The translations under genes were made by a program, and so were the position numbers. This document shows, piece by piece, positions 1,369 through 46,052 of a stretch of DNA of 46,052 nucleotides (its first letter is position 1; each line of letters opens with the position of its first letter). Where the stretch lies: IMG/VR virus record IMGVR_UViG_2671180885_000005; one strand, written 5' to 3'. This DNA is from a virus. Taxonomy: Duplodnaviria; Heunggongvirae; Uroviricota; Caudoviricetes. The notes under the pieces are model-generated. The model saw only the letters and a program-made list of their open reading frames with translations, did no database searches and was not told the origin of the DNA.

Positions 1369-1444
1369 GCCGATATAGCTCAGTTGGTAGAGCAGCGCAT
1401 TCGTAATGCGAAGGTCGTAGGTTCGACTCCTATTATCGGCACCA
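1369..1444 (+). tRNA. thrW: tRNA-Thr (anticodon CGU)
   Basis: 76-nt sequence GCCGATATAGCTCAG...TCGGCACCA with a 7-nt anticodon loop UUCGUAA (anticodon CGU), TPsiC-arm GGTTCGACTCC and encoded 3' CCA. Confidence 0.9.
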
Positions 1445-1458: not shown

Positions 1459-2622
1459 TTACACATCATTAGTACCTTCCTTATTTTTTGACTGGGACAA
1501 ATTTGGGACCGATGGGTTCAGGATCAAGTCTATTTGCCGTGCGTGTTCGGTAAGGTGATTAGGTGCAAGGTGAGCATATCGACGAACCATTTCGATAGAC
1601 TCCCAGCCTCCCATTTCCTGTAACACTGACAACGGGACTCCGGCTTGAACCAGCCAACTTGCCCAGGTGTGTCTCAAGTCGTGAAATCTGAAATCATCAA
1701 TACCAGCCCGTCTCAGCGCCGCTTTCCAGGCTGTGTTTGCGTCATACCGCATCTTCCTTACTGTTGGCGCTTTCGTTCCGTCTGGTTTGGTACAGCTTTC
1801 CTTGTACACAAATACCCAACGGTGATGATTCCCGATTTGTTTTTTCAATACGCGACATGCAGTATCATTCAGCGCAACGCCAATTGCGCGGTTTGATTTA
1901 CTCTCTTCCGGGTTTATCCATGCCACCCGGCGCTGCATATCTATTTGTTGCCATTCAAGGTTGATGATGTTCGAGCGTCTTAAGCCTGTTGCCAGTGCAA
2001 ATTCAACAACAGACTTTAATGGCTCCGGACATTCATCAATCAGCCTTTGTGCTTCATGGGGCTCCAGCCAGCGGATCCGTTTATTCTTTGGTTGAGGCAC
2101 TTTAATAATTGGTGCCTTATCCAGCATTTTCCATTCACGCTCTGCGGCTCTTAGTAGGGCCTTTATAAATGAAAGATGCGTAGCCTTCGTTGCAACGGAC
2201 GCTGGTTTTGGCGTGTATTCTGGAACAGGTTTCCCTTTTTTTCTGCATGCTTCTGCCCTGAGTTTCCAGTTTTCCTCATGACGCCGGTTCGTCATTTTCT
2301 GCATTGCTGAATAAATTTTTGATTCAGTAATGTCTCTTAGTTGCATTCCTGCGAAATGTTGAAGCCAGAATCCGATCCGGCTTTTGTCATCGTCAAGTGA
2401 TTTTTTATGTGCTTTCTCTTCAAGCCACCTGACACACGCTTCCTCGAACGTTATATCAGGTATTTCACCAAGTTTGCTGACCCGCCATGCTTCAGCCTTT
2501 AGCTTGTCATGGAGTTCTGTCGCCTGCCTTTTGTCCTTTGTTCCAAGAGACTGTTTAAATCTTTTACCGTTCGGCAATGTGAAACTGGCGTACCATATTT
2601 CACCTCTGCGGAAGAGTGACAT
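1459..2622 (-). CDS. int: tyrosine-type site-specific integrase
   Basis: 387-aa ORF next to attL, transcribed toward the tRNA; C-terminal catalytic region [39 protein letters not shown] (R..HxxR..Y pattern). Confidence 0.9.
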
Positions 2623-2849: not shown

Positions 2850-3193
2850 TATTTCACCTCTTGCTGTGACATTGTTGAAAAATGGATACCAGCTCGTTGC
2901 TGCCAGACGATCCAACCGAGAGTCATATCCCATGCCATGTATTCGTTATCGCCGTTTTTTGCTCTCCGACGATCGACTGTTTTACCGAAACGCTTTTCCA
3001 TAAATAATTCATAGGCTGCGCGTTCATCTGGCTCAACTTCCAGAGATGCCAGTGCAATCCGTGCCAGTTCTAAATCATTTTCAAGCTCAGCGCGAATCTC
3101 AGCGAATGCACTCTGTGTTAAGGTGAACTCAATGCTCTGCACTTTATTCCGTGCGCGCTCAAGCAGTGCATGGTAGTTAATTTCGGTTGTCAT
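2849..3193 (-). CDS. hypothetical phage protein (114 aa)
   Basis: ORF with a strong SD (GAGGTAGGGG) before the ATG at 3193; its stop overlaps the xis start (TAATG). Confidence 0.6.
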   Translation of the reverse strand: MTTEINYHALLERARNKVQSIEFTLTQSAFAEIRAELENDLELARIALASLEVEPDERAAYELFMEKRFGKTVDRRRAKNGDNEYMAWDMTLGWIVWQQRAGIHFSTMSQQEVK

Positions 3194-4068
3194 ACCCCTA
3201 CCTCTTCGAATTCCAATTCCAATTGATCACCCCAGATTTCACATGACTCTGAACACGAGCCGGTATCGAATCGCCTGGCCTGTACCATCGCCTGATACAA
3301 ATTTCTGTAGTCGCTGTTGGCAGACATTCTGGCAATTCCGTCAAGCGTCAGGTGACCACGGTACATAATGTCTTTACCTGTTCTGCGATGATCATCCCTG
3401 ACGTGTTTGCCTGTAACCAGCTCATTAAAAACTCGCATCAGACCTGGTTCGTCTTTACATGCAAGCCCCAGCTTTTGCGTTGACTTTTTGATGCAGAAAA
3501 CACAGTTCCCGAGATGCTCCGGGATTTGCAAATCAAAAGGTTGTTTTCGCCACCACCGGATAACATCCGACTTATCAAAATCTGACAGCTCGGCAAGATA
3601 CCGGACGCCCGATTTCGGTTTCAGCCTACGGGGTTCGTCTGCACGAATACCCAGCCATGTGATGTAATTACCTCGCCCGAAATGGTTATCGCAGTATTTC
3701 GTGAAAGGGATGAGTTTTAGCCTGTCAGTACAGAACGCGCCGCCGATGTATGGCGTGCCGTACTTTTTAACCATGTCCATAAACGGTTTAAGCACCGGCA
3801 TTCGTGTCTGAATATCCTTTGGCTCCCATTCTGTATAACCATTTGGCTGCCCAAGCTCAGGATTTATATCGACCTGTAACACAGTTAGTGGTATGTCCCA
3901 GAACTTCACAACCTCCCGGATAAAGCGGTATGTCAGCGGATGTTCGCAACCGGTATCCATAAAGATGTAGCAGACGTTATTGCCAGCCTTTCTTTGTTCT
4001 TCCATCAGGTGAACAAGATATGCGGATGTTCTCCCGCCAGAAAAACTAACTACATGAGTTATGCACAT
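3190..4068 (-). CDS. PAPS reductase-family PP-loop ATPase
   Basis: Translation from the internal ATG at 4068 (MCITHVVSFSGGRTSAYLVHLM...) shows an SGGxxS PP-loop-like motif typical of the PAPS reductase / adenine-nucleotide alpha-hydrolase superfamily; start chosen to avoid a long overlap with the upstream gene. Confidence 0.75.
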   Translation of the reverse strand: MCITHVVSFSGGRTSAYLVHLMEEQRKAGNNVCYIFMDTGCEHPLTYRFIREVVKFWDIPLTVLQVDINPELGQPNGYTEWEPKDIQTRMPVLKPFMDMVKKYGTPYIGGAFCTDRLKLIPFTKYCDNHFGRGNYITWLGIRADEPRRLKPKSGVRYLAELSDFDKSDVIRWWRKQPFDLQIPEHLGNCVFCIKKSTQKLGLACKDEPGLMRVFNELVTGKHVRDDHRRTGKDIMYRGHLTLDGIARMSANSDYRNLYQAMVQARRFDTGSCSESCEIWGDQLELEFEEVGV

Positions 4069-4595
4069 TTGCGTAATTCCGATAACTCGTTGAAGCGTTC
4101 CATAAACATCCCGTAGGCATGGCCCGGTGCCAGTGGAATAACTTTGAACATCTCTGTTGCCGGGATACCTTCCAGTACAGGCCATAAAGAGCCATCATCA
4201 AGCCCGAGATCACGGCGTTCGGTTGCCAGCATAATGAGATCGGCATATTTCACTGGCGTGCTCATAACAGGAGGTAACCCGTATTTCTCACGGATTACTG
4301 CATCTATTTTTTCTTCCATCCGTTTATAGTCAGGAAGAAGGCGTTTCAGTGGTGCGGGGATGTCCTGGCAATACGCTTCTGTTGCATCATGCATTAACGC
4401 TTCAAAAGCAAATTCCTGTGGCACCAGCTGGCTGCAAAGCACCGCATGTTGGGCGACACTGTAGAAGTGAGAAAGATGACCGGCAAAGCGGCAGATATTT
4501 GAAAGGGAAACCGCGATATCGTTAATCACGATGTCGTCTTTATTTATCTTGTCATAATAAAAATGCTTCCCGGAAAAAGTTTTAATAAATGACAT
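4059..4595 (-). CDS. HD-domain phosphohydrolase (YfbR-like 5'-deoxynucleotidase family)
   Basis: ATG at 4595 preceded by GGAGA; H...HD motif (HFYSVAQHAV...LMHDATEAY...DIPAPLK) resembles YfbR-type HD nucleotidases. Confidence 0.7.
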   Translation of the reverse strand: MSFIKTFSGKHFYYDKINKDDIVINDIAVSLSNICRFAGHLSHFYSVAQHAVLCSQLVPQEFAFEALMHDATEAYCQDIPAPLKRLLPDYKRMEEKIDAVIREKYGLPPVMSTPVKYADLIMLATERRDLGLDDGSLWPVLEGIPATEMFKVIPLAPGHAYGMFMERFNELSELRKCA

Positions 4596-5612: not shown

Positions 5613-5975
5613 TTAACGACCTGCTGCGCGGAGTTTTCCGTCAGGCTCACCGGCAAGAGTCAGTAATTGTCCCTGGTCTTCCTGCAGAATAGTCAGGCGA
5701 CCACCGCGATTGACATACATCGGCGTTTCGGTGGTGTCTTCTTCGGAAATTTTCCCACGGTTAGTCGGGCGAACATATGAGAGTTTGTGTTTGATTTTCA
5801 CACGGTTCTCATCAAATGGTTCGATTTCCAGGTTGAGTGAGACCTTACCTTTGGTTTTCGTGTTCATCACACCGGAAGCGACTTCACTGAGAACTGCGCC
5901 GATTTTGGTTTCAAATACGCCGCCGTCCAGCTCCCCGATAAATGCCTGCACATCAGTACTGCGTTCGCTAGCCAT
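5613..5975 (-). CDS. hypothetical phage protein (120 aa)
   Basis: Internal ATG at 5975 (MASERSTDVQAFIGEL...) with AGGAG 9 nt upstream; the longer 226-aa ORF in the track runs through a GC-rich region with no start signal. Confidence 0.6.
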   Translation of the reverse strand: MASERSTDVQAFIGELDGGVFETKIGAVLSEVASGVMNTKTKGKVSLNLEIEPFDENRVKIKHKLSYVRPTNRGKISEEDTTETPMYVNRGGRLTILQEDQGQLLTLAGEPDGKLRAAGR

Positions 5976-6575
5976 TTTGCTGCTCCTCATCATATCGACC
6001 CTGCAAGGCCGATTAGTTTCTCCACAAAACAGAGAAGAACACCTGCGGTGGCAGCCGCCCGGATGGATTGGGTTATGAGCCCGTCGTCCGGTGATGCTCT
6101 TCTCTGTTTTGTAAAAAGAGCGGTACCAGCCGGAAGCAAGGGTACAAACTGGTACCGCCAGGACTACACACAGCATAAAGTTGTGGTGCCGGGTGCCTCC
6201 CGGTGCCTGGCGAAGGTTGCACACCAGACGGGTGGGTATCCACAGAAGGTCGACTGTCAGCCTCAACCTTAACCCGCGTGCGCTGAGCCGCATTCACCAC
6301 AACGCTAAGGATTCTCTCTGGTTGAAAATACTTAGCTGTTATGTGCCTGTCTTTTCACCACTTCAGGCTCGGTGGTATCCTTTTAAGCCCGTATACATAA
6401 AAGGAAAATCAAATGACTTTTGATGAAAAAGAACTTGATAATGCAATTAATAAAATCATCGTAACGTCGCTCTTTTCCTGTCTCAGCGACACTCAGCAGA
6501 AACAGTTCTACGAATCGGCTTTCAACATGATCGAGCGTTGTTGTTTCTGCGATGCCGACGAGTTACCTGAAAAAA

Positions 6576-6851
6576 TCAGGAAACAGTTGGCTGATGCTCT
6601 TCGAGTGCGACTTTCTGACCAATTTTCTGAAATGTGCTCTCCGAATTTGGACAAATAGAAAAAGGCCATTTCCATTCAGGGTCTGATGGAAATACTTCAG
6701 CCTGTTCCAAAGCACGGTGTAAAGAGAACACAACTCCAGCCATAATCTGATGTTTCCCATTGGTCCAGCTATCGCCGCTCTGATCTACAGGAGCGGCTAT
6801 GTCGTATGACCAAACGACTTCACCACTATTGTTTAAAATCTGGACTTTCAT
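6576..6851 (-). CDS. hypothetical protein (91 aa)
   Basis: ORF with GGAGG SD before the ATG at 6851, immediately after the upstream minus-strand gene; its 3' end overlaps antisense with the plus-strand ORF 6413..6658, so only one may be real. Confidence 0.45.
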   Translation of the reverse strand: MKVQILNNSGEVVWSYDIAAPVDQSGDSWTNGKHQIMAGVVFSLHRALEQAEVFPSDPEWKWPFSICPNSESTFQKIGQKVALEEHQPTVS

Positions 6852-7247: not shown

Positions 7248-7874
7248 TTAGAGTTCGTATTGAACTCCTTTGACTACACCAATGATAAGGCAATTACCAT
7301 TGATAGGGATGTTGGGATACCGAGGATTTAATGGCACTAAAAACTTTTGAGGGCCATCGATGACTAATTTTTTTACTGTAGCTTCGTTTGTTCCATCAAG
7401 TCGAGCGATGACTATTTTTCCATGACGAGGTTCTGCATCTGGATCTACAATCACTGTTGCGCCTTCTGGTATTGTTGGGAGGCCATTAGGGTTAGTCATG
7501 GAGTCACCTTTAACCTCTAATGCAAATGAGTTATCACCAATCTTTAATGATGTATCTACCCACTTGTCCACTTCACTAAACACTTCTGCTGCCCTGCACT
7601 CAGTAAACTGCCCAGCCTGAACCCACGATATTACAGGAACTCTGCGCATGTTTGTGACGAGTTTGCCTTCAAACTCAGCACCATAAAGAATGTAATCTAT
7701 TGACGTATTGAAGAACTTCGCTAATTTCGAAAGTGCCTCCCCACCAGGGGTATTGATGTCTTTCTCCCAGTACCCCACAGCAACGTCGCTTACTCCACAA
7801 AATTTACCCAATTCTTTCTGGGACGTTCTGGTAACTCTTCTCAGAGCTTTTATACGCTGACCAACCGTTTCCAT
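7248..7874 (-). CDS. cI: CI-like prophage repressor (HTH-XRE plus S24 LexA-like peptidase domain)
   Basis: N-terminal HTH (QKELGKFCGVSDVAVGYWEKD), C-terminal S24 autoprotease motif (GDSMTNPNG...K); divergent from a cro-like gene. Confidence 0.9.
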   Translation of the reverse strand: METVGQRIKALRRVTRTSQKELGKFCGVSDVAVGYWEKDINTPGGEALSKLAKFFNTSIDYILYGAEFEGKLVTNMRRVPVISWVQAGQFTECRAAEVFSEVDKWVDTSLKIGDNSFALEVKGDSMTNPNGLPTIPEGATVIVDPDAEPRHGKIVIARLDGTNEATVKKLVIDGPQKFLVPLNPRYPNIPINGNCLIIGVVKGVQYEL

Positions 7875-11256: not shown

Positions 11257-11418
11257 CGGAATTGAGCAACACCCTAAATTTGGGTATTACCTCGTTAAAG
11301 ATACTGTATTTATGAACAGTGTATCCTTGATAACTATTAAAAATCGCAGTAAGTTCATCCTGCATCAACGAAAAGGGAGTGCAGTCCCGCTCGTGGATAA
11401 AAATTTGTGGAGAAACCA

Positions 11419-12234
11419 ATGAATCAGTTGCTTGTAATTGATGGCGTTTCTGTGCGCCAGTACTTCGAATCTAACTACTGTCTTAACGACCTTCAGAAAG
11501 CTGCTCTTCTTGCCGCTGGTGAGAATCGCTCCTCCCGTTCGCTGGAAGTTCACGAGTTTATGCGTCGTCCTGAAACGAAGGCTCTTGTGGAATTATTGGA
11601 AGAAGAAACTACGGGAGATTCCCGTAGTATTCCTGTCATCACCATTCAGGGGCGCAATGGTGGGACGTATGTCTGTAAAGAGCTGGTCTATGCATATGCA
11701 ATGTGGATCAGCCCGGCATTCAGCTTAAAAGTGATACGTACTTTTGATGCGCTTCATAATTCATCACCAGAAGAAACCACATCCGACAAAATTAAATCCG
11801 GGGTCATTCTGCTTGAATCAGCAGCAAAGACTCTAAATCTGTCAAACTCCTCGAAACTTGGTGCATACCAGAAATTATCAAAGGTAGCTGGTCTTCCTGA
11901 ACTTATGCCGATCTATGCCATTGATGCACCTGCTGATGCGCCAGATGGTTCAAGCCGCCCTACGCTGTCGCTGAGTGCACTGCTGAAGCAGTATGGTATC
12001 CGCCTGACGGCTAATCAGGCATATCACCAGATGGCGAAGCTGGGGATCGTTGAACAACGCGAACGATACAGCCGTACCGCAATTAACAACATTAAAAAAT
12101 TCTGGTCGCTGACGGCGAAAGGCTGCATGTTCGGCAAGAATATCACCAGTCCCGCAAATCCACGTGAGACGCAGCCGCATTTCTTCGAATCCCGATTCCC
12201 TGAGCTGTTAAAGCTGCTCGATACCGTTCATTGA
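11419..12234 (+). CDS. KilA-N domain protein
   Basis: ATG at 11419 after GGAGA; segment GTYVCKELVYAYAMWISPAFSLKVIRTFD matches the KilA-N domain signature. Confidence 0.7.
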   Translation: MNQLLVIDGVSVRQYFESNYCLNDLQKAALLAAGENRSSRSLEVHEFMRRPETKALVELLEEETTGDSRSIPVITIQGRNGGTYVCKELVYAYAMWISPAFSLKVIRTFDALHNSSPEETTSDKIKSGVILLESAAKTLNLSNSSKLGAYQKLSKVAGLPELMPIYAIDAPADAPDGSSRPTLSLSALLKQYGIRLTANQAYHQMAKLGIVEQRERYSRTAINNIKKFWSLTAKGCMFGKNITSPANPRETQPHFFESRFPELLKLLDTVH

Positions 12235-12235
12235 G

Positions 12236-13231
12236 GTGACCGTGAGAGCACTACTGACCCCTGAAATTGCCCCGCGTATGGGGATCGTATTGTTCAGGCC
12301 AGGTTCAGAGCTGATGCCCCTGTTTATGCAGGGGCGAGTCCTGCTGGAGCCTGAGCCGGAACGTTATTCATCTTTCGCCAGTGGTGCCGTTCCGGCGGCA
12401 TCACAACCGCTGGCGGATGATCCTGCCGTTCGGGCCGTGTTCCGCAATGAGGCAGTGATCCGTCGTGCTGGTGGCGTGGAATGTCTTGAAAGCTGGTTAC
12501 TTCGTGAAAAAGGCTGCCAGTGGCCTCATTCCGACTGGCACAGCGAGAACATGACCACAATGCGACACGTGCCGGGCGCAATCCGTCTGTGCTGGCACTG
12601 CGATAACCAGATGCGCGATCAGTTCACGGAACGGCTGGAATCAATGGCAACGGATAACTGTGCCCGCTGGGTGTTGTCTGTTGTGCGTCGGGATCTCGGT
12701 TTTGATGACAGTCACGTTGTGACAATGCCGGAACTGTGCTGGTGGCTGATTCGTAATGATCTGGCGGATGCCTTACCGGAAAGTGCAGCCCGTAAGGCAC
12801 TGAGATTACCGAAGCCTGTTGTGCCGTCTGTTACCCGGGAAAGTGACCTTGTGCCTTCGGTTCCTGCCACCAGCATCATCCTGGATAAGGCGAAAAAGGT
12901 GCTGGCGCTGAAAGTGGATCCGGAGTCGCCGGAGTCTTTTATGTTACGCCCCAAACGTCGCCGCTGGGTTAATGAAAAGTACACGCGCTGGGTTAAGACA
13001 CAGCCGTGTGCATGTTGTGGAAGGCCCGCTGATGATCCCCATCACCTGATAGGTTACGGTCAGGGTGGAATGGGAACAAAAGCGCATGACCTTTTTGTGT
13101 TGCCTTTGTGCAGAAAGCATCACGACGAGCTGCATGCGGATACCGTGGCATTTGAAGAGAAGTATGGCTCCCAACTGGAGCTGATATTTCGTTTTATCGA
13201 TCGCGCGCTGGCGATTGGTGTGTTGGCCTGA
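12236..13231 (+). CDS. DUF968-family protein (YdfU-like) with C-terminal Cys/His motif
   Basis: 331-aa ORF (GTG start); C-terminal CACCGRPADDPHH...CRKHHDELH resembles the DUF968/HNH-like region of Qin-prophage YdfU. Confidence 0.65.
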   Translation: MTVRALLTPEIAPRMGIVLFRPGSELMPLFMQGRVLLEPEPERYSSFASGAVPAASQPLADDPAVRAVFRNEAVIRRAGGVECLESWLLREKGCQWPHSDWHSENMTTMRHVPGAIRLCWHCDNQMRDQFTERLESMATDNCARWVLSVVRRDLGFDDSHVVTMPELCWWLIRNDLADALPESAARKALRLPKPVVPSVTRESDLVPSVPATSIILDKAKKVLALKVDPESPESFMLRPKRRRWVNEKYTRWVKTQPCACCGRPADDPHHLIGYGQGGMGTKAHDLFVLPLCRKHHDELHADTVAFEEKYGSQLELIFRFIDRALAIGVLA

Positions 13232-13248
13232 TTTGGTGGAGAAAGTTG

Positions 13249-13614
13249 ATGCGTGATATTCAGATGGTTCTGGAGCGTTGGGGAGCATGGGCGGCGAGTG
13301 ATAGTTCTGGAGTAGACTATTCGCCTATAGCTGCTGGGTTTAAGGGGCTTCTTCCCTACACAAGCAAAACACGTCAGGCTTGTTCAGATAGTGATGCATT
13401 AATTATTGAAGGTTGTCTTGCTCGTCTAAAGCAAAAAAAGCCAGATGAGCACTCGCTGCTTGTGGCACATTATTTATACAGAATATCCAAGCGTAAGATT
13501 GCAAAGGTGCGTGGAAAGGATGAAAAATTGGTACGCATAGAAATACAACTAGCCGAAGGATTTATTGATGGTTGCCTTTCAATGTTGGATGTTAACCTTG
13601 AAATGGACGCTTAG
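13249..13614 (+). CDS. late-gene antiterminator Q (QuuD-type)
   Basis: N-terminus MRDIQMVLERWGAWAA... matches my recollection of DLP12 QuuD and related Q proteins; GGAGA SD before the ATG at 13249. Confidence 0.8.
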   Translation: MRDIQMVLERWGAWAASDSSGVDYSPIAAGFKGLLPYTSKTRQACSDSDALIIEGCLARLKQKKPDEHSLLVAHYLYRISKRKIAKVRGKDEKLVRIEIQLAEGFIDGCLSMLDVNLEMDA

Positions 13615-13620
13615 GGTTGC

Positions 13621-13650
13621 ACAGGTTGGCCCCATATGAGGCCAACCTGT
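13621..13650. promoter_or_regulatory. perfect 11-bp-stem hairpin (ACAGGTTGGCC / GGCCAACCTGT, 8-nt loop)
   Basis: Seen directly; lies between the Q stop and the stop of the convergent minus-strand membrane-protein gene, with no adjacent U-tract on either strand. Confidence 0.4.
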
Positions 13651-14099
13651 CACAAGTGGGGGAAGATTTTTCGTAACACTAACCAACACCTTCCGAAGGT
13701 ATATAGCGAAATTATAAGGGAGGATAAGCCTAACAGTATGAATAGGAAATCAATAGGTTTGCCCGCAACAATAACATCATCAGGTAGAAACATCGCTATC
13801 AATGGAAATATACATGCGACGATGAGAGTTAACCCTGTTGAAAGTAATCTATTTACCAGAGTTGGTAACACGTTGTTTTGCTTAAGGGCATTAATTGCTC
13901 CTTCCTTATCGCTGTTTGCACTACTAAATATAGATATTGCAGCCAGAACAAAACCAAACAGGATGCCTGATATAGTCGAGAGCACCCCCGCTGTTGTGAG
14001 TACGTCAGCATGCTTCATCGGTTTAAACAGTTTTGTCGCTGCATAGGTCAACAGAATCCAGAGGACGCATTTCCAGAGAAAAGTGGCTAATTCTCTCAT
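13650..14099 (-). CDS. small polytopic membrane protein (about four predicted TM helices), cargo gene 2
   Basis: Start taken at the ATG at 14099 with GGAGG 5 nt upstream; four hydrophobic stretches (FLWKCVLWILLTYAATKLF; VLTTAGVLSTISGILFGFVLAAISIF; STGLTLIVACIFPLIAMFL; IDFLFILLGLSSLIISLYTF); 21 bp after the stop of the upstream gene. Confidence 0.6.
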   Translation of the reverse strand: MRELATFLWKCVLWILLTYAATKLFKPMKHADVLTTAGVLSTISGILFGFVLAAISIFSSANSDKEGAINALKQNNVLPTLVNRLLSTGLTLIVACIFPLIAMFLPDDVIVAGKPIDFLFILLGLSSLIISLYTFGRCWLVLRKIFPHL

Positions 14100-14120
14100 T
14101 GTGTCCTCCATGCTTGGTTA

Positions 14121-15062
14121 TTAGTCTCTGCTAGCGAGCTCATACTGTGCAAGATAGTTCGCGTTATCAATTTTAGCAGATATCATCGCCGTTCTGATAT
14201 CAGAATCGGATGGATAACCGCTTTTGACAATGATTGTCTTTGTACTGACCAATACTTGGTCAAGTAGACTTTTGGGCGTTCTATTGGATGGCTCTGTTAC
14301 ATCAATTTTTTTAATTTTTAGACCTCCAGAACCTTTTGGAAAAAGTTCAAGTAGTTCCTTAATAGCATCGGTGACAGAAGTTTTTAGATAGTTAAACCCT
14401 TGTTTTTTCGGGCGAATCCGACCTCGCATATTTAATCTTAGATGCGACCCGCCCATACCAACAACCATGTCAATAATTTCATTAGCTAAAGGGTTTTTAA
14501 TCTTATAATTAGCTTTGTTAAAGTTTCTTGGAGCAGCAACTATAAGATCGAAACTACGTAGGATATTTCCGTCCTCAAGCAGTTCCTTCATGCTCTCTTG
14601 TTTCCAAATGGCTTCAAAAGTGACGCTTTTTAAATCAGTTTTGTTATACAAAATGAATGCCAGATCATTTACTTTGGGCCCTATATGGTTGAGGGTCATA
14701 GCTAATAAGTCCGTTTCGTAGTAATAGATAAAATATGTTCTTTCAACTACAGAATCTTTATCATTTAAAGGAATTGTTCTCTCACTACCTGTAGCATCCT
14801 CGATGAACGGTAGTAGGCATTCCCTTCTCCACGATACGTAACCAAAGTAACATTGCAGTGTGGTATCTTTTTGAAGAATAACTAACTTTAACCCTCGATT
14901 TGGGGTGTATGTTGTGTAAGTTATTGGAAAAGTTACAGTATCTGCTGTGGTCATTTGCTCAAAGGCTAGTTTTGCAGCAGATGTGCCATCTTTTTTGCTT
15001 CCATTACCAGTGAAAAAACCAACTCTCACTCGCCTGGTTTTATTCTTATTTTCTGTACTCAT
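14121..15062 (-). CDS. hypothetical soluble protein (313 aa), cargo gene 1
   Basis: Long AT-rich ORF antisense to the phage late genes, in the Q–holin moron position; no family recognised by eye. Confidence 0.6.
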   Translation of the reverse strand: MSTENKNKTRRVRVGFFTGNGSKKDGTSAAKLAFEQMTTADTVTFPITYTTYTPNRGLKLVILQKDTTLQCYFGYVSWRRECLLPFIEDATGSERTIPLNDKDSVVERTYFIYYYETDLLAMTLNHIGPKVNDLAFILYNKTDLKSVTFEAIWKQESMKELLEDGNILRSFDLIVAAPRNFNKANYKIKNPLANEIIDMVVGMGGSHLRLNMRGRIRPKKQGFNYLKTSVTDAIKELLELFPKGSGGLKIKKIDVTEPSNRTPKSLLDQVLVSTKTIIVKSGYPSDSDIRTAMISAKIDNANYLAQYELASRD

Positions 15063-15184
15063 TATCGATCCGAAATAATTTTAGCAACCGTGTGAAAAAT
15101 ACAACAAAAAAAAGAGGAAATCATTAGCGCGGTCCGCAAAAAACATTGTAATCTGTTAAGAGTGGTTACTTCGCCACACAGCTT

Positions 15185-15215
15185 AAACCCGCCGTCGAGC
15201 GGGTTTTGTCGTTTC
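15185..15215 (+). terminator. candidate tR'-like intrinsic terminator upstream of the lysis cassette
   Basis: Hairpin AAACCCGC-CGTCGA-GCGGGTTT followed by TGTCGTTTCTG (U-rich) on the plus strand. Confidence 0.45.
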
Positions 15216-15358: not shown

Positions 15359-15685
15359 ATGCCTCATAACCCAAATACCTGGCTGGAGTTGGTCCAGAGC
15401 TGGTGGCGTGGAGACACACCGCTGGGCGCAGTGATTATGTCGATCGTTATGGCTGGCTTGCGCATTGCCTATTTTGGCGGTGGTGGTGGCTGGAAACGAA
15501 AAACGCTCGAGATTTTGCTCTGTGGTGCTCTGACGCTGACTTTTGCATCCGCTCTTGAGTATGTCGGATGGCCTAAATCTCTTTCTGTTGCCATTGGTGG
15601 CGGCGTTGGGCTGATCGGGGTCGATGCTATTCGTGGGGCTGCAATGAGAGTAATCGGTAATAAGTTTGGTGGCTCTAAGGAGTAA
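15359..15685 (+). CDS. holin
   Basis: 108-aa protein with hydrophobic TM segments, immediately upstream of endolysin R; SD GAGGTGAGAG. Confidence 0.8.
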   Translation: MPHNPNTWLELVQSWWRGDTPLGAVIMSIVMAGLRIAYFGGGGGWKRKTLEILLCGALTLTFASALEYVGWPKSLSVAIGGGVGLIGVDAIRGAAMRVIGNKFGGSKE

Positions 15686-16628: not shown

Positions 16629-16709
16629 AATTGCTTTCGATGTATGGATCTGGACATCTTTTTTTTCTACTATGCTGACTGAGAATTGAAACGTATATGG
16701 ATATTCTAT

Positions 16710-17468
16710 ATGAAAAGAAAAAAATTAGAAGGTCCCGGGTGTGAATCATATGAAGGGTTAGATGTTGAATATTATATTGATTCCGAAACGGGGGAATTTA
16801 AAGCGGTTTATACATTCAATAATGAAATTGTAGATCGCATAAAATTGAGTGGGCGTATTGCCGATAGAGCATCTTCACTGTCCCTAATTCATAGGGACTT
16901 AAAAAGTGCTAAAGAGTGGTACCAAATAGCTAATGAACTGGCAGGGAGAAACGAATTAAGGACAGATGGCAAGTTATACGGGAATATACTTGATCTAGAT
17001 TTATCAAGTGAAATTAGAGCGTTATTTGTGGCAAGCCTAACGTTTTATGGTAAAGCTTTCTCTGAAACTAAAGGGAGAAAGTTAAAGATGGAGCGTGATT
17101 GGCTTGATTCTGAATATTTTGGGTTGCATGACTGTATTATTAACTACAGGCATAATTTTGCAGCACATAGCGGCAACCAAGACTATGAGTCAGCAGAAAC
17201 TTCATTGTTACTAATAAGGAAAAATGGGAAAACATTTTATCAAGCAGTGACAGATAGAAAACAACTGAGCATGATTGGTGTCGAGGACGAGCATGTTGAT
17301 ATGATTAATTTATTTGAACATGCGATACAGGTTGTTGAGAAAAAATATAATGAAACATTAGAGAGAATTAGAACCTATGTCATGCAAAAGAGTTATTCTT
17401 TTTGGTGTTTAGCTGCCACAGGGAAAGATCCCGTCAATTTAGATAAGTTAAATAAGAAGAAAAAATAA
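16710..17468 (+). CDS. hypothetical AT-rich accessory (moron) protein, ~252 aa
   Basis: ORF after the lysis cassette and before the packaging genes, with composition visibly more AT-rich than flanking phage genes; start uncertain (TTG 16686 or ATG 16710). Confidence 0.5.
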   Translation: MKRKKLEGPGCESYEGLDVEYYIDSETGEFKAVYTFNNEIVDRIKLSGRIADRASSLSLIHRDLKSAKEWYQIANELAGRNELRTDGKLYGNILDLDLSSEIRALFVASLTFYGKAFSETKGRKLKMERDWLDSEYFGLHDCIINYRHNFAAHSGNQDYESAETSLLLIRKNGKTFYQAVTDRKQLSMIGVEDEHVDMINLFEHAIQVVEKKYNETLERIRTYVMQKSYSFWCLAATGKDPVNLDKLNKKKK

Positions 17469-39442: not shown

Positions 39443-39910
39443 TCAGTCGTTGCTGCAGTCTCCGAGAGTGGACAGAACTTTCTCAGCGTTCTTCCGGTCC
39501 GCAGTGAAGGTCCCTGCTTTGTGGTCATTGACGTAGACGTCGAACTGCCCGGCCTCAGAGATATTGCTGATGAAGTCAAACCAGGCGTTATCGCCGTTAC
39601 GCCAGCCCAGGCTGGACGGAATAATGTACTGCTGGTGATCCATCACTACGGTGATAGTAGTGTCGTCATCGTGCGAACTGACCATCTTGTCATCGGCAAG
39701 GGTAAGAAAGACTGAATGCTGATAGAAACCATTCTGGTCCGGGTTCCCTGTGCAGTTGATGGTAAACGTCTTTCCGCTGGCTTCGGTCACGCTGTATTCC
39801 GTATTGCCCTGACCGTAACCCTGCTGCCAGAACCCCGGGATAGCAGAGGCATTAAAGCTCGCGAGCAGTACACCCGCCAGCATAAACCGACTTAGTGAAA
39901 GTATTGTCAT
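39443..39910 (-). CDS. secreted protein of unknown function (YkfB-like)
   Basis: 155-aa ORF with N-terminal signal peptide ([23 protein letters not shown]). Confidence 0.7.
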
Positions 39911-39938
39911 TCTTGTCTCCTTTGTCGTTGTTTTATTC

Positions 39939-40376
39939 CTAGTTCTCAGGGTTTGAGGGTATCAGCAGTCGCCCCATCAGTTTGCCGTCATGGGCGTACT
40001 CAAAGTATTTTTCTTTGGTATACGGGTCCGTCACCTCCTGGTATTCCAGTTTGATGTTATCGGCAATACACAGCGCATTCATCAGTGGCTGGACGGTTTT
40101 TTCCTGCATATCCACGAGGTAGTAGTAACTGCCATCCTCGCAGCCATCGGGCGACTGGCGGGTACGTAAAACCTGCAAGGTGGGACCGGATAAGTAGTCA
40201 ACCTGTGACCATTCTTCGCTGACATCATCCTGGTGGCTGACCACATCACTGAAACGCGGTGGGGTAAGGTCCTTAAATTTACTGATGGCCTTCAGGTCAT
40301 CACTTCTGTCATCGCATGCGATGAGAAACAGAGTGGTGGCAACCAGCGCCAGCAGAGGCAGTGTTTTACGTTTCAT
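39939..40376 (-). CDS. lipoprotein (YafY-like)
   Basis: N-terminal lipobox MKRKTLPLLALVATTLFLIAC. Confidence 0.7.
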   Translation of the reverse strand: MKRKTLPLLALVATTLFLIACDDRSDDLKAISKFKDLTPPRFSDVVSHQDDVSEEWSQVDYLSGPTLQVLRTRQSPDGCEDGSYYYLVDMQEKTVQPLMNALCIADNIKLEYQEVTDPYTKEKYFEYAHDGKLMGRLLIPSNPEN

Positions 40377-40612
40377 TATTTTTTTCCTGAAATCAGACGA
40401 ACCACTTTGGCAAAGACATAAATGCCCACGAAAATACCCACCGGCACGCCGACGAACGGTGTCAGCGCGACACTGGCAGCACCGGCTGCGCCACCTCCCG
40501 TCAGCAGTGCGGCAACAGTGGCAAGGGTCAGGGCCGCGAGACTGTCGGACACCCCGGTTTTGTTCAGAATGATGACGATGACAACAATGGCGATAATGGC
40601 AATAACGGGCAT
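40376..40612 (-). CDS. small membrane protein (78 aa; YkfL/YpjK-like)
   Basis: ATG at 40612 after GGAGG; highly hydrophobic. Confidence 0.55.
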   Translation of the reverse strand: MPVIAIIAIVVIVIILNKTGVSDSLAALTLATVAALLTGGGAAGAASVALTPFVGVPVGIFVGIYVFAKVVRLISGKK

Positions 40613-40652
40613 AGGGCTCCTCCCTGTTGCCGGGTTGATAACAACGCTTACG

Positions 40653-41354
40653 CTATTCTGGTGGGCTGTCGGCCGGAACAAACGTAAGCAGTGACTGCTG
40701 GATAAAGCGAAAATGGGGTAAGGACTGAATAAAGCCCGGGTCTTCAACAAGACGACACAGACTGTCGTTACGCCGGAAAGTCTCCTGCAGGGGCTGAACC
40801 AGATGGATTTCATCCAGGGAGAATACGGCGATATGTCCGTCGTGCTCTGCCACCAGATACCAGGCCTGCTGGTGGATAAGTAACCGGCAGGGAGCCAGCC
40901 GCTCACAGCGTCGCCCCTCGGCAATCAGAGTCACCCGCCTGCGCCCGGTAATGGCCTGAATCAGTCGCCAGAAAGACAATGCGCCTGATGGCGAAGGAGA
41001 CGGACTGGCGGGTGCGATTACGCAGGGAGACTCATCGCACATCAGCAGTGCGTTTACCAGACGACGGTCAAAGCCAGGGAAAAGACCGGCCATCCCGCTG
41101 CGGTGGGCAAAGATAAGCACGTCGGGCACCATCTGCGTCTCACTGCCCGCAGTGCGTAAGCGGCAATATCCGGACTGATACTCCAGGTCCAGATACATCA
41201 GCCGCTCACGAAAATCACGCCGCAGCGTGCGCACCGACACACCAAACTCAGCGGCAAGCTTACGCACACTCAGCGTTTCCCCTGCCACCAGACGGCTGAT
41301 TATCAGTGACAGCCTGACAGCCAGCCGGTCATGGCGGCGTTCTGCCTGTGTCAT
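40653..41354 (-). CDS. HTH plus WYL-domain transcriptional regulator (YfjR-like)
   Basis: N-terminal HTH ([21 protein letters not shown]) and a C-terminal WYL-like region ([15 protein letters not shown]). Confidence 0.65.
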
Positions 41355-41570
41355 GAGACGTTCTCCGTGAAAGTTAACTGACTGAAAATGATGTGATTAC
41401 TTTAAAGAGGGGGTCGGACAGGGTATGGACACCACAGAAACTATTTTTCATTTCTGCAAAAGCCAGAGGCAGCGGGGGTTACAGGCCTTCCCTCGGTGAG
41501 TGAGGACCGTCAGCACGGTGCGATGCGGACAGGTGGTGTCCGATATTAACAAAGCAGCAACATTAAACGG

Positions 41571-42407
41571 TCACTGCAGTTGCGTGAGCAGGGCTTCCGC
41601 CATCACCCACAGTGCCCGGTTAAGTTTCACGTCCCCGTCGATACCGCGAACGGCACGGGTATGTGACCGTCCTCCTTTGGCATTACGGCCACTGAGCCCG
41701 CCCTTAATCAGGTTCTCCTGAATACGCTGGTACGTGGTCCACAGGTCATTGCTCTCATCCTGCCAGCGGCGAGGGGAGAGGATCTGCGATTCAGTCACCG
41801 GCTGGTGGTCTTCACCAAAGCGGTATGTGAGGGCGGCTTTTGCCAGTGCCTGCTGTGCCGGGGGTGGCAACAGCAACGACTGCATGGCATCCCGTTTCTC
41901 CTCCACCCGGTCAAAAATCCCCAGCACCTCATACGCGCCTTCAATCACCTGACTTACCACGTCCCCCTTGTGTGGCACCCGCACCTCGCCAAACGACTCA
42001 CCGCAGACGAGCCCGTTCTGACAAACCGCACGAAATAAACCCGGCAACATCTGGTACGAACTGGTGCCATCATGGGAGTTGAGCAGGATAATTTCTGGTA
42101 CCTGTTTACCGGTAATCTGCCCCTCCCGACGAAGGCGTAGCATGTGTTTTGTGTGCTCGCGTCGACCCGGGTCGCGTACCCGGGTCTGACAGGCAAAGAA
42201 CGGCTGGAAGCCTTCGCGCTGCAGGCTGTCCAGCAGGGATATGGTGGGTATATAGGTATAACGCTCACTACGGGATGCGTGTTTGTCCTCACTGAATACA
42301 CTGGGCACCACGCGAAACAGCTCTTCGCGGGTTAACGGGCGGTCGCGACGGATAAGATTTGCTGCGCCAAAGCGCGAAGCCAGACGGGTCATAAGCAGAC
42401 TCCTCAT
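41571..42407 (-). CDS. DUF932-family protein (YafZ/YfjQ-like)
   Basis: 278-aa ORF in the conserved position after the GTPase. Confidence 0.75.
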   Translation of the reverse strand: MRSLLMTRLASRFGAANLIRRDRPLTREELFRVVPSVFSEDKHASRSERYTYIPTISLLDSLQREGFQPFFACQTRVRDPGRREHTKHMLRLRREGQITGKQVPEIILLNSHDGTSSYQMLPGLFRAVCQNGLVCGESFGEVRVPHKGDVVSQVIEGAYEVLGIFDRVEEKRDAMQSLLLPPPAQQALAKAALTYRFGEDHQPVTESQILSPRRWQDESNDLWTTYQRIQENLIKGGLSGRNAKGGRSHTRAVRGIDGDVKLNRALWVMAEALLTQLQ

Positions 42408-42483
42408 AACGGGAAAACAAATAAAAGGGATCCCCGTCGCATCGGCGACAGGGGCAGGGAAGTAACAGGGATGGGTTAAATAC

Positions 42484-43347
42484 TCAGAAGAAGAAATCCC
42501 AGACGGCGCGGGCCACTGACACCACCGTGGTGCGCACGGCCTGAATGACAGCCCGTACCGGGGCGGGTATCAGGGGAAAGGCACTGATGCTATCGAGTAC
42601 GGCCCCGACGGTTTCACCAAAATCGCTACGAGCCTGTTCCCGGACTACCGTCGTGCGAAAGGAAGACTGGAGTTGCGACACCACCGGGCTGGTGGCCTCA
42701 CGTGGCAGGCACTTAATCATTCGCTCGGCCATCACCCGCAGTCCCCACTGAAGACGGACCGACACGGCACACACCGGATGTACGGGCTGGAACAGCTCAT
42801 GCAGCAGACAGATTTTACGGCTGATATTCTGCTTCTGCGCCGTGGACAACGGTCCCCCACCGCTGGTGGGTTCGGCCTTATCCGACTGGCTGATAACAAA
42901 CAGCACCTTATGCCGGTATACCTCTCCAATCACCTGATGATAAAAATGTTCATCCACCGCCAGCGCCCGGTCATCGGCCTTAATCAGCCACAGTACCAGG
43001 TCGAGGCGAGGAAGCTGTTCGCGGTACAGCGCAGCATACTCGGTATCGCGAGCACCACTTTCGCCCACGCCGGGCAGGTCCACCAGCGTCATATAGCGGT
43101 CGCCGACTTGCAGGCGAAAGCGCAGTGGCTCACGGGTACATGCAGCCACATCGCTGACCGGTGATATATCTCCGGCAAACAGGGCATTGCACAGACTGCT
43201 CTTCCCAACACCGGTTTTACCCATAATGCCGATCACTGGCTCGTAGCGGGTTAACTGATTTATCTGCTGCAATATACGTTCAGACACCCACTGTGGCAGA
43301 CCAGCGAGCGATTGCTGAAACGGCTTCAATCCTTCAGAATTGTTCAT
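42484..43347 (-). CDS. GTPase (YkfA/YfjP family)
   Basis: ATG at 43347 after GAGGAG; P-loop GKTGVGKSS and DLPG motif. Confidence 0.8.
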   Translation of the reverse strand: MNNSEGLKPFQQSLAGLPQWVSERILQQINQLTRYEPVIGIMGKTGVGKSSLCNALFAGDISPVSDVAACTREPLRFRLQVGDRYMTLVDLPGVGESGARDTEYAALYREQLPRLDLVLWLIKADDRALAVDEHFYHQVIGEVYRHKVLFVISQSDKAEPTSGGGPLSTAQKQNISRKICLLHELFQPVHPVCAVSVRLQWGLRVMAERMIKCLPREATSPVVSQLQSSFRTTVVREQARSDFGETVGAVLDSISAFPLIPAPVRAVIQAVRTTVVSVARAVWDFFF

Positions 43348-43453
43348 TACTACTCCTCTGAAAAATAATACAAAAACGGCAGAATCGTGAGATTCCACCG
43401 TTAATCTGGTATGTTCAAAGGGATGATATATATCTGAAAATTATTAACTTGAT

Positions 43454-44380
43454 CTACTTTTTGTCTTTTTTACGTGATGAAACAGCCTGCTGCCAAGCAT
43501 GCTTCATTTTCTGAATAAAGAAATATTTTTCTTCAACTCCAGTGTCCCAACTATCCATGCATGCAATGATCATCTGTATTCTCATTGCAGGGTTATATGG
43601 TTTTAAATAAAAGGGGATCATATTTTTATTTCTCAGATACTCCCAGCAATAGATAGCTTGCTTTTCATCTTTTTTATCTAGCCAGTCATAATCAGTAAGA
43701 AATGTATTATATTGCTCTAGCCATTTATCATGCAACTTACGAAAATAGGAAATTTTCTGACTTAAACTTACAGGAGCTAAATCAATAAACCTCATCAAAG
43801 TACAAATGCGTTCTTGTTCGGATGTTGTATTCGGGCTGTAGTTGTCGGGATCTGCGCCAGATGTTAAATAAAATCTACGCGAGTATTTTTCAGGTATATC
43901 TCTATTTTTTTCTTTATTGCTAGGGGAGATTCCCACCTGCATTTCGGCTTGTACTTCATCAAGTGAGAAATTTTTAATTTCATCAATGTTTATAAATTCA
44001 AAAAAGGATGCAGGAGTTGAGTTCGGGTTGTAAATATTATCTTGTGCAAAGATATTCACGCTCGAGGAGGTTTCAGGACTGATTCTGTTGTTATATATAT
44101 ACATTAAGGCAAACCACGATCCTCTATCAGAACCTTTGAAGCAATCGAACTTCTCTTTGTCAATGATTTTGTAATGGAACTGTTTTTTCAAGTAAGTACG
44201 CGCACTTTGTATTGCTTCATTATTGAATAGGAATTTAGTGTTCAATATATGATTAATGAGTTTTTGAAATTCCTCAGGCGTGTCGAAATTACTCGCCTGC
44301 TTAATGTAATCTTCGTTGTAATACAGACTCAGAACGTAAAGGGAAAAGAACTCCTCTCTCACTTCGTCATACCTAAGCAT
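43454..44380 (-). CDS. hypothetical AT-rich protein (308 aa) heading the GTPase operon
   Basis: Long ORF, visibly AT-rich; no family recognised; occupies the slot where CP4-57 carries rnlAB. Confidence 0.55.
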   Translation of the reverse strand: MLRYDEVREEFFSLYVLSLYYNEDYIKQASNFDTPEEFQKLINHILNTKFLFNNEAIQSARTYLKKQFHYKIIDKEKFDCFKGSDRGSWFALMYIYNNRISPETSSSVNIFAQDNIYNPNSTPASFFEFINIDEIKNFSLDEVQAEMQVGISPSNKEKNRDIPEKYSRRFYLTSGADPDNYSPNTTSEQERICTLMRFIDLAPVSLSQKISYFRKLHDKWLEQYNTFLTDYDWLDKKDEKQAIYCWEYLRNKNMIPFYLKPYNPAMRIQMIIACMDSWDTGVEEKYFFIQKMKHAWQQAVSSRKKDKK

Positions 44381-44829
44381 GTACCCTCCAGTGTGATATC
44401 ACATCTGTCCGATGCTTTCAAAAGTATAAATGAACCATGATGATTTGGCATCTGCAAGGTGACTGTTGACTGGTTTTTTGCTGATTTTTTAATGATAAAG
44501 TAGTGATTACTAACTGATTAGTAAGTGATTAATGGCTGGTTGCCTCCTGTGATTTTTCTGCCTCTGGTAAATTGGGGGAGAGTACTGATCAACTCACCAC
44601 TCTGAATAATTTTCATGATTGCACTCTACAAAGTTTCGACATCCGTCAAATTGTAACGGTCAGAGAACAGCGTTACACGAGGTTTTCCGTATCTATGCAT
44701 TCTTAGTTGGGTAGCTCAACTGCTCCTTCCAGATCTTTTTTTACGTCACACCCCATTCATGTGGAGGAGAAGGCGTGAACAATTAGTTATCGCCTGCTCC
44801 GGTGCTCTTCTCGCAATGGGACACTCAGC

Positions 44830-45036
44830 ATGAAAACTAAACCTGCACTACTGGAAGATGAGTTCATCGATATGAAGTTTATCACACGCCTTACTGGCCT
44901 GAGTGATAAATGGTTCTATAAGTTGATACAGGAAGGGGTATTTCCGAAACCCATTAAGATGGGTAGAGCTTCTCGCTGGTTAAAAAGCGACCTGGAGGAG
45001 TGGTTGCAGGCTAAAATTAATGATTCCAGAAATTAA
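44830..45036 (+). CDS. alpA: AlpA-family phage regulatory protein / excisionase
   Basis: FITRLTGLSDKWFYKLIQEGVFPKPIKMGRASRWLKSDLEEWL is a typical AlpA HTH. Confidence 0.8.
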   Translation: MKTKPALLEDEFIDMKFITRLTGLSDKWFYKLIQEGVFPKPIKMGRASRWLKSDLEEWLQAKINDSRN

Positions 45037-45440
45037 ATATTTTGGACTGTGTTTATCAAATTCCATGCCCTTTTTGCTGCTTAATTTTAAATGACACTCT
45101 GATCATGCACCGTGATTGAAATAAGTTATAGCCACCCCTTAATCATTTTTTTCAGACGACATTAACTTCGGAGTAAATAATTTAACACAATGAAATATCA
45201 AACCGCATCTGGCCTGAATGTTGAGTATTAATACGTGACGGATTGTTAATATATATCAGTACATAAACCCCAACATTCCAGTAATACACACCTACGCAAT
45301 ACACACCAAGCAATTTAGTCAGCATCACCCAACTAACATCCAACACAAACTCAATAAGCCAGATTTGATACCACCTAATTACCTCAACCATCGCGGGTAA
45401 GGTTCCGTCCTGCCCGATATTCATATCACAGGAATCTATT

Positions 45441-46052
45441 ATGCTTAATGATATTTATCTTGACCAACGTCATGCCCCATTCAATACAACGTATTTGCAA
45501 CGGATGCTGGGTGTAATTGATAACGCTATAGCACAACACCCAAGGACAATGGCTGTCCGTGTCGATCTACGTCTGCCTGATGACAACTGTAATAGGAATA
45601 GTGGTCTGATATCCCGTTTCATTGAATCGCTTAATGCAAAAATCGATGCTCGGTACCGAAATAAAATAAAGAATGGCATCAGGAGCTACCCATGCCAGTT
45701 GCGTTACGCCTGGGTTCGGGAAGTGGGAGAAATAAACGAGAAGTCCCATTACCACATGGTACTTTTCGTGAACAAAGACACATTCAATGGACTTGGGAGC
45801 TATGGAGAAGGGGGAACGGGATTAGCCAGCCTGATACGTGAAGCCTGGCTGAGCGCTTTGCAACTAGGCCCTTACCCCGAATACCGAACGTTGGTCCACA
45901 TCCCGGACAACCCATTGTATTACCTGGACGTCAATAATTTAGACTACAAAACGGTTTACGATAAGCTCACTTTCCGTCTGAGCTACTTTGCGAAAGAGCG
46001 CACCAAGTCATACAGCCGGAATGAACGCTCGTTTGGCTGCAGTCAGTCCTGA
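45441..46052 (+). CDS. YagK/YfjJ-family (inovirus Gp2-like) protein
   Basis: 203-aa ORF ending at the window edge with a stop codon; position after alpA as in CP4-type islands. Family assignment is from memory and weak. Confidence 0.5.
   Translation: MLNDIYLDQRHAPFNTTYLQRMLGVIDNAIAQHPRTMAVRVDLRLPDDNCNRNSGLISRFIESLNAKIDARYRNKIKNGIRSYPCQLRYAWVREVGEINEKSHYHMVLFVNKDTFNGLGSYGEGGTGLASLIREAWLSALQLGPYPEYRTLVHIPDNPLYYLDVNNLDYKTVYDKLTFRLSYFAKERTKSYSRNERSFGCSQS

Follow-up and report, generated by a model that had tools for sequence, protein, structure and literature searches.

The stretch of DNA analysed here (the window) is the IMG/VR virus record IMGVR_UViG_2671180885_000005, 46,052 nucleotides (nt) long and assigned to the Caudoviricetes. 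It carries two adjacent minus-strand genes, A and B, whose products are most likely a very diverged, unannotated relative of RexA and RexB of phage lambda. Judged by structure and architecture, there is good confidence that the pair is of the RexAB type; that it also functions as a RexAB-type phage-exclusion (abortive-infection) module is probable. This reading rests on four independent lines of evidence: the fold of protein A, the fold, topology and remote sequence signal of protein B, the order and sizes of the two genes, and the lambda-like placement of distant members of the family. The original prediction, made from the sequence before any database search, had taken a soluble protein combined with a small membrane protein as pointing to an abortive-infection or exclusion system, and the analysis agrees with this. 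The pair lies outside the RexA and RexB families as these are defined by hidden Markov models (HMMs). As a sequence family it stands apart, and its regulatory position differs as well, namely from the antiterminator gene Q to the late promoter pR' and not in the immunity region. The cassette consists of the following parts.

14121..15062, minus strand: gene A, 313 amino acids (aa), soluble and basic, isoelectric point (pI) 9.3; RexA-like predicted fold, DUF6731 superfamily, PHROG 7651

14100..14120, minus strand: spacer between A and B, 21 nt, carries a GGAGG Shine-Dalgarno sequence

13650..14099, minus strand: gene B, 149 aa, predicted four-helix inner-membrane protein, pI 9.4, grand average of hydropathy (GRAVY) 1.0; RexB-like, PHROG 8552

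The linkage of two minus-strand genes, the 21-nt spacer and the GGAGG before the second gene had all been noticed beforehand and are confirmed from the open reading frames (ORFs) and the sequence. The stop codon TAA of gene A occupies 14123..14121, GGAGG occupies 14109..14105 and the ATG of gene B starts at 14099; direct reading of the sequence gives 5 nt between GGAGG and this ATG. The longest ORF available to B has 153 aa (13650..14111, minus strand), and within it translation from the ATG at 14099 yields the product of 149 aa. In the alignment, all homologues of B begin at the equivalent of this ATG and are 145-149 aa long. The impression that the cassette is more AT-rich than the phage backbone also holds, with a G+C content of 38.9% for the cassette versus 51.2% for the whole window. 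In a comparison with an 85%-identical allele, the ratio of nonsynonymous to synonymous substitution rates (dN/dS) comes to 0.048 in A and 0.116 in B; pairs that are further apart show saturation at synonymous sites. These ratios indicate strong purifying selection on both genes. Decaying pseudogenes were considered and are ruled out by dN/dS values of 0.05-0.12.

Scans of A and B against Pfam, NCBIfam and PADLOC gave no match at E ≤ 1, and the two PHROGs families listed above are both recorded as function unknown. Relatives of A with 44-99% identity are spread across the Enterobacterales (Citrobacter, Serratia, Yersinia, Salmonella, Pectobacterium, Xenorhabdus and others). Relatives with less than about 61% identity (44-61%) score above the threshold of Pfam DUF6731 (PF20505), a family of unknown function. 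It is through these relatives that A is linked to the family, and not by a direct match: scanned itself, A of the window had no PF20505 match at E ≤ 1. A profile search with the family of A among 1.8 billion representative proteins returned only 172 clusters (50% identity). Most of the clusters tested, the distant ones among them, are DUF6731 proteins, with P0138-P0239 scoring 30-61 bits against the PF20505 cut-off of 27. By this chain of sequence similarity A belongs to DUF6731 transitively, as an outlying subfamily.

In its structural model, A is a soluble component with the RexA fold. The fold neighbours of the model include CHL4, CENP-N, IML3, RdgC, Cas2 and the NDP-sugar epimerase 3oh8, which is the neighbour set given as structural relatives of RexA by Adams et al. 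2024 (PMC11077077). The fold score is 11.2 for RexA versus 5.8 for RdgC. The model starts with six strands and two helices, continues through a beta-alpha-beta-alpha-beta-alpha-beta unit and closes with a last strand and the C-terminal helix; this order of elements fits the split globular domain of RexA, which is interrupted by a four-stranded dimerisation domain. At the level of sequence, the DUF6731 profile and a small RexA profile share a colinear alignment of 218 columns (P 0.011; 1 of 40 block shuffles was as good). The top-conserved motif of the enterobacterial A profile, FIYYYEtDlL..NHlGPKxxDLaF, aligns with RexA residues 93-123 (P 0.0044; 3 of 40 shuffles were as good). When hhalign was used with the single lambda RexA or RexB sequence against the narrow family profiles, the result was not significant. 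Against PDB sequences, the enterobacterial A profile had no match, and the DUF6731 profile found only a chance-level stretch of eIF2-alpha.

For B, the four hydrophobic segments of the hydropathy profile and the AlphaFold2 model agree with the four transmembrane (TM) helices that had been predicted. The model has four long helices (residues 2-24, 30-63, 77-104 and 116-145) at a predicted local distance difference test score of 79.5, and it presents B as the small inner-membrane partner with four TM helices that belongs to a RexAB-type pair. The second helix (TM2, AGVLSTxSGILFGFVLAAISIFSS) hardly varies between alleles whose overall identity is only 46%, and a G-x-I-x-ALK motif is conserved in the central loop that joins TM2 to TM3. 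A Foldseek search of BFVD gave as second-best match of B a 165-aa protein of mycobacteriophage Sbash (probability 1.0, TM-score 0.53/0.49, E 0.033). This protein was taken as gp31 by its length: within the first 50 kb of the Sbash genome (55.8 kb in all; genes 78-89 aside), no other coding sequence has 165 aa. Sbash gp31 is an experimentally validated RexB-like effector, the cytoplasmic central loop of which is essential (R70A, D73A) (Gentile et al. 2019, PMC6426596). The best BFVD match of B was A0A8S5S8H0 (Siphoviridae sp. ctylc9, 172 aa; TM-score 0.60, 20% identity), an uncharacterised gut-virome protein; its neighbourhood might hold another Rex-like pair.

The sequence link between B and RexB is carried by more distant relatives. 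B-like ORFs at the distant DUF6731 loci described below match the HMM of the window B with E-values of 1e-20 to 3e-4, and three of them match a RexB HMM directly (E 5e-6 to 3.5e-4). A B profile broadened by inclusion of these ORFs (A7) was aligned with the RexB profile over 71 colinear columns, from TM1 to the start of TM3, with P 2.4e-4 and a probability of 44%. The alignment scored 30.5; 40 block shuffles averaged 14.3 ± 2.1 and never exceeded 18.9, and the reversed template scored 16.6. On the strength of these profiles the relationship of B to RexB is taken as real remote homology, not as family membership.

The distant loci were collected by a contig scan built from 12 closer sequences and covering one genome per species. 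The scan produced 18 DUF6731 loci from Gammaproteobacteria, Betaproteobacteria and a Magnetococcales metagenome-assembled genome, one of them cut by a contig end. At nine of the 17 complete loci the DUF6731 gene is followed by an ORF of 139-159 aa that overlaps its 3' end or lies directly against it; by a crude scan, six of these ORFs have four hydrophobic segments and three have two or three. In Vreelandella olivaria and Idiomarina sp. the DUF6731 gene directly follows a co-oriented cI-type repressor gene (HTH_3 + Peptidase_S24), and in Pseudomonas putida NBRC 14671 one small ORF lies between the two. The cI-linked DUF6731 genes (L095, L110 and L103) are paired with a membrane ORF of 142-148 aa. 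This order of cI, DUF6731 gene and membrane ORF is the cI-rexA-rexB arrangement of lambda, and is counted in favour of the RexAB-type reading. The Kosakonia and Rouxiella loci have the version that is convergent with Q.

Several observations weigh against a RexAB-type pair. The RexA models of Pfam (PF15969) and PADLOC (PDLC02339) gave no match to A at E ≤ 1, although the same models match lambda RexA at 1e-97 and 9e-110. Likewise, B of the window is unmatched at E ≤ 1 by the RexB models (Pfam PF15968, PADLOC PDLC02340), which do recognise the lambda protein. By itself, the sequence similarity of A to RexA is marginal, and the narrow B profile gave no significant result versus RexB (P 0.046; 4 of 40 shuffles as good). 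Foldseek gave weak E-values for B (0.013-0.033), and matching is promiscuous among small helical membrane bundles. The RexA fold is also present in RdgC and in kinetochore proteins unrelated to defence. Eight of the 17 distant DUF6731 genes (L094, L096, L097, L099, L106, L107, L109 and L111) are without a membrane partner; RexA homologues that are orphans in a similar way have been recorded by Adams et al. (PMC11077077). The cassette is not beside the repressor gene in this prophage, where about 6 kb separate it from the cI-like gene. The putative promoter, finally, is a weak consensus match only: a consensus scan upstream of A found no sigma-70 site, and only a relaxed scan gave an extended -10 candidate. 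These features and others that define the setting of the cassette are as follows.

1369..1444: tRNA-Thr(CGT) gene thrW, integration site of the prophage, adjoined by proA

1459..2622: integrase gene

7248..7874: cI-type repressor gene

11407..13614: KilA-N, DUF968 and Q genes

13246..13614, plus strand: antiterminator gene Q (QuuD type, 122 aa), PF06530 with E 7.7e-52; left boundary of the slot, convergent with the cassette

13621..13650: hairpin between the convergent stops of gene B and Q, perfect 11-bp stem, without U-tract

15078..15107, minus strand: candidate cassette promoter from the relaxed scan, TTGTTG, 18 nt, extended -10 TGcTAAAAT; predicted start at about 15071, leader of about 9 nt

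15120..15215, plus strand: pR'-like block and terminator, TCATTAGCGCGGTCCGCAAAA..TGTAAT..TGTTAAGAGTGGTTAC, followed by a hairpin (15185..15206) and T-tract

15359..15685, plus strand: holin gene (lambda-type), PF05106, followed by lysozyme and Rz genes

The matches to PF06530 and PF05106 on either side bear out the placement of the cassette between Q and the holin gene. Of the two hairpins that had been thought to bracket it, the one at 13621..13650 is real and strong. As minus-strand RNA it has a folding energy of -27.3 kcal/mol (z -4.95), and none of 200 shuffles folds as well. It is probably a terminator or RNA-end stabiliser, which would insulate Q from transcription of the cassette. The hairpin at 15185 also exists, but as a bracket of the cassette it was not retained: since its T-tract lies on the plus strand and the surrounding block is conserved irrespective of cargo, it is read as tR' of the late operon, outside the cassette. 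The block (about 15120..15207) is kept upstream of the holin gene across differing slot cargo and across genera. It is found in DLP12 of Escherichia coli K-12 (L122) at 577206..577275, upstream of essD, and is common to about 2600 of 5426 E. coli genomes, DLP12 included, whatever cargo precedes it. By analogy with lambdoid late regulation the block would comprise pR', the Q-binding/pause region and tR', and it probably defines the late promoter and the Q-binding site of the QuuD-type Q proteins. It carries a near-palindrome, GCGGTCCGC, and then the terminator. The block marks the right edge of the variable slot. The cassette lies upstream of it and therefore between Q and the promoter of Q, outside the late transcript; it is convergent with Q and with the early-right transcript, so that the earlier description of it as antisense to the late operon does not apply. 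An Rfam search of the cassette region found no RNA family.

The surroundings of the pair were surveyed at 88 loci (80 from IMG/VR, seven from assemblies, and phage cdtI). B is directly downstream of A and co-oriented with it at 87 of these, the exception being a truncated A. In the IMG/VR locus L049 (3974..4774) the copy of A loses similarity after residue 209, there is no B or Q nearby, and the copy looks like a decayed or recombined one. A QuuD-type Q follows B directly and convergently at 84 loci; the pair is located away from Q in L091-L093, in Mu-like contexts and beside cI. Its carriers are temperate phages and prophages, i.e., the thrW prophage of the window, phage cdtI and the IMG/VR loci. 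A holin/antiholin role was rejected because the pair is also found far from lysis genes. Sibling prophages hold the following cargo in the slot between Q and pR'.

K-12 DLP12 (L122), antisense: porin gene nmpC

L123, 2071..3066, minus strand: gene for an SDH-family Clp-fold serine protease

L124, 1917..2663, minus strand: gene for a 248-aa hypothetical protein

These sibling prophages have the same flanking KilA-N, DUF968 and Q genes. In QuuD-type prophages the stretch from Q to pR' is a hotspot of antisense cargo, in agreement with the earlier view of the pair as a cargo cassette in a variable slot.

The identities of A and of B to the window pair co-vary (Spearman 0.91); the identity of the pair versus that of the flanks gives Spearman 0.19 for Q and 0.21 for DUF968. 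The surveyed loci share phylogeny and are not independent, and these correlations are descriptive. At many loci the pair is only 45-47% identical to that of the window, yet DUF968 is 97% and Q 85% identical, which indicates that whole cassette alleles are replaced between conserved flanks. Three discrete alleles, about 45% identical to each other, occur in 72, 25 and 18 complete E. coli genomes, together 115 of 5426 (about 2%). Within each allele the identity is at least 99% among the matches listed or inside its own group, and the flanks of the three alleles stay 85-97% identical. Both genes of the window allele are labelled 'hypothetical protein' in RefSeq (72-73 complete E. coli genomes), and A of the other two E. 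coli alleles is labelled 'DUF6731 family protein'. Allele 2 corresponds to orf54/orf53 of the sequenced phage cdtI. In the literature searched there was no description of the pair and no mention of DUF6731.

If the pair is a RexAB-type exclusion module, it could work in the following way, in which expression in the lysogen, dimerisation, DNA binding, contact between A and B, depolarisation and the anti-phage phenotype are inferred. The SfII/SfV-like lambdoid prophage at thrW would carry a two-component exclusion module. In the lysogen, an AT-rich promoter of its own, immediately ahead of A, would drive this module separately from the late operon, and transcription would stop at the strong hairpin that precedes Q. 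Protein A, with its RexA/RdgC fold and probably as a dimer, would bind DNA non-specifically and act as the sensor or activator of the response to infection. B, encoded 21 nt behind A on the same mRNA, would be the RexB-like membrane effector. Upon infection by an unrelated phage, a phage protein or an intermediate of replication or recombination would trigger A. The triggered A would activate B via the conserved cytoplasmic central loop of B. Depolarisation or permeabilisation of the membrane by B would then lower ATP, arrest growth and abort the infection.

The pair might instead serve the life cycle of the prophage itself, either by biasing the transition from lysogeny to lysis, as RexA does in lambda with RexB as its antagonist, or, through convergent transcription, by tuning Q or the timing of the late genes and lysis, which would account for the nearly constant location between Q and pR'. 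Lambda RexA is known to act on the bistable switch independently of RexB (Adams 2024, PMC11077077), the convergence with Q at 84 of 88 loci extends across genera, and some antisense read-through into Q is conceivable for a hairpin without a U-tract. Nevertheless, such a role as the main function is judged unlikely: the unrelated cargo in sibling slots points to a general insertion hotspot rather than to a functional requirement, the pair also occurs off Q (L091-L093, the Mu-like contexts and beside cI), and the identity of the alleles is decoupled from that of Q. A life-cycle role is in any case compatible with defence, as lambda RexAB does both. It is also conceivable, with a low probability, that the almost constant position between Q and pR' in the Enterobacterales, convergent with Q and behind a hairpin that lacks a U-tract, reflects a functional coupling that links superinfection exclusion to the late-gene switch. 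For example, transcription of the cassette could damp leaky Q in the lysogen, or A could detect Q-modified or late transcription or replication complexes of incoming related phages. A pair of the same type could also work with reversed logic, as in gp30/gp31 of mycobacteriophage Butters, with A as a toxic effector that is sequestered by B until infection. Such a variant exists among the five Rex-like systems described as of January 2026 (PMC12894663), and the orphan DUF6731 genes (8 of the 17 distant loci) show that A can act alone in some lineages. In four of the five described systems, however, the membrane protein is the effector (PMC12894663), and in the pair of the window B is, in its membrane core, the more conserved partner, with a nearly invariant TM2, as expected of an effector or channel; reversed logic is thought improbable here.

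Two explanations outside the Rex-like systems were weighed as well. Cargo for lysogenic conversion or membrane physiology, such as a transporter or a stress module, in which the RexA-like fold would reflect generic DNA binding of the RdgC type, is very unlikely, given that RexA scores far above RdgC (11.2 vs 5.8), that B matches RexB-type proteins specifically, and that the family is almost exclusively prophage-borne, with lambda-like linkage to cI. The original prediction had also named other two-gene defence types, i.e., Kiwa, or CBASS or Pycsar with a TM effector. The likeness is one of superficial architecture: Kiwa, with the four-TM KwaA and the DUF4868 protein KwaB, also joins a small four-TM protein to a soluble protein of about 310 aa. 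There was no match to these systems in PADLOC at E ≤ 1, the TM gene precedes the soluble gene in Kiwa and follows it here, and the fold neighbours of A are RexA-like, with no KwaB-like fold among them. These types were rejected as extremely improbable, and a RexAB-type module remains the preferred reading of the pair.

Some other genes of the window deserve mention. A second AT-rich cargo gene (32-38% G+C) is located at 16686..17468 (plus strand), after Rz and before the HNH and terminase genes. Its 260-aa product belongs to PHROG 8440 (function unknown) and had no match in Pfam, NCBIfam or PADLOC; it is a candidate moron or defence gene. The early-left gene at 3190..4185 (minus strand) encodes a PAPS-reductase domain and matches SspD of PADLOC with E 1.8e-14 and, more weakly, DndC and BrxP. 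It may have a phosphorothioation-related or anti-defence function. Two ORFs at 5613..6293 (minus strand, 226 aa) and 6576..6851 (minus strand, 91 aa), both without family match, are downstream of the cI-type repressor gene on the same strand and occupy the position that rexA-rexB have in lambda. Beyond the tail-fibre genes, 39900..46052 is a CP4-6-like remnant with genes for a YfjS/YafY lipoprotein, a WYL/DeoR regulator, DUF932, a dynamin-like GTPase (weak similarity to LeoBC) and YagK/YfjJ.

RexAB is among the oldest unsolved abortive-infection systems, and its trigger and mechanism are still unclear 70 years after Benzer. If the RexAB-type reading is correct, DUF6731 would gain a function; the family comprises 172 or more clusters (50% identity) from Enterobacterales, Pseudomonas, Halomonadaceae, Idiomarina and other groups. 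The pair would be a Rex-type system native to E. coli that has been overlooked by the models of PADLOC, Pfam and NCBIfam and is labelled 'hypothetical' in RefSeq. Three natural alleles of about 45% identity in an isogenic slot would then be ideal for the mapping of trigger specificity and of the co-evolution of A and B. Another Rex-like pair would not surprise a specialist; the value lies in the function for the DUF family, the handle native to E. coli and the allelic series.

Compared with lambda RexA/RexB (PF15969/PF15968; PDB 8TWQ), the pair has the same order of A before B and similar sizes, with 313/149 aa here versus 279/144 aa. The pI values are 9.3/9.37 versus 8.6/9.33, and the GRAVY of B is 1.00 versus 0.98. 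The differences are a pairwise identity of about 12-17%, 34 additional residues in A and the lack of a match to the Rex HMMs. The lambda genes are located downstream of cI under pRM, whereas the pair here is between Q and pR', convergent with Q and presumably under its own promoter. RexABpp of the P. putida prophage P1 (PP_5643/PP_5644; Rosendahl et al. 2026, PMC12894663) is near a cI-like repressor gene, unlike the pair here, and RexBpp has at least 181 residues (mutation Y181H) versus 149. RdgC (PDB 2OWL), a recombination-associated DNA-binding protein, scores well below RexA as a relative of A; it is encoded by a chromosomal housekeeping gene and, unlike A, has no membrane partner.

Gp30/gp31 of Sbash and gp44/gp43 of the Gordonia phage CarolAnn (PMC6426596) are from actinobacterial hosts, and Sbash gp30 is larger than A (372 aa). 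The essential central loop of Sbash gp31 has a counterpart in the conserved central-loop motif of B. Placement on the side of the immunity repressor, with co-expression of the two, is a feature of lambda, CarolAnn and RexABpp, but is not universal, as the Sbash pair is also without it: genes 30/31 lie away from the repressor, downstream of the lysin A, lysin B and holin genes, with ORFs 28 and 29 between. Alignments by hhalign of the A and B family profiles with Sbash gp30 and gp31 were not significant, and the two Sbash proteins, although validated by experiment, are also missed by the Rex HMMs of Pfam and PADLOC. In practice it is fold and architecture that delimit the RexAB-type class, and the pair of the window has both.

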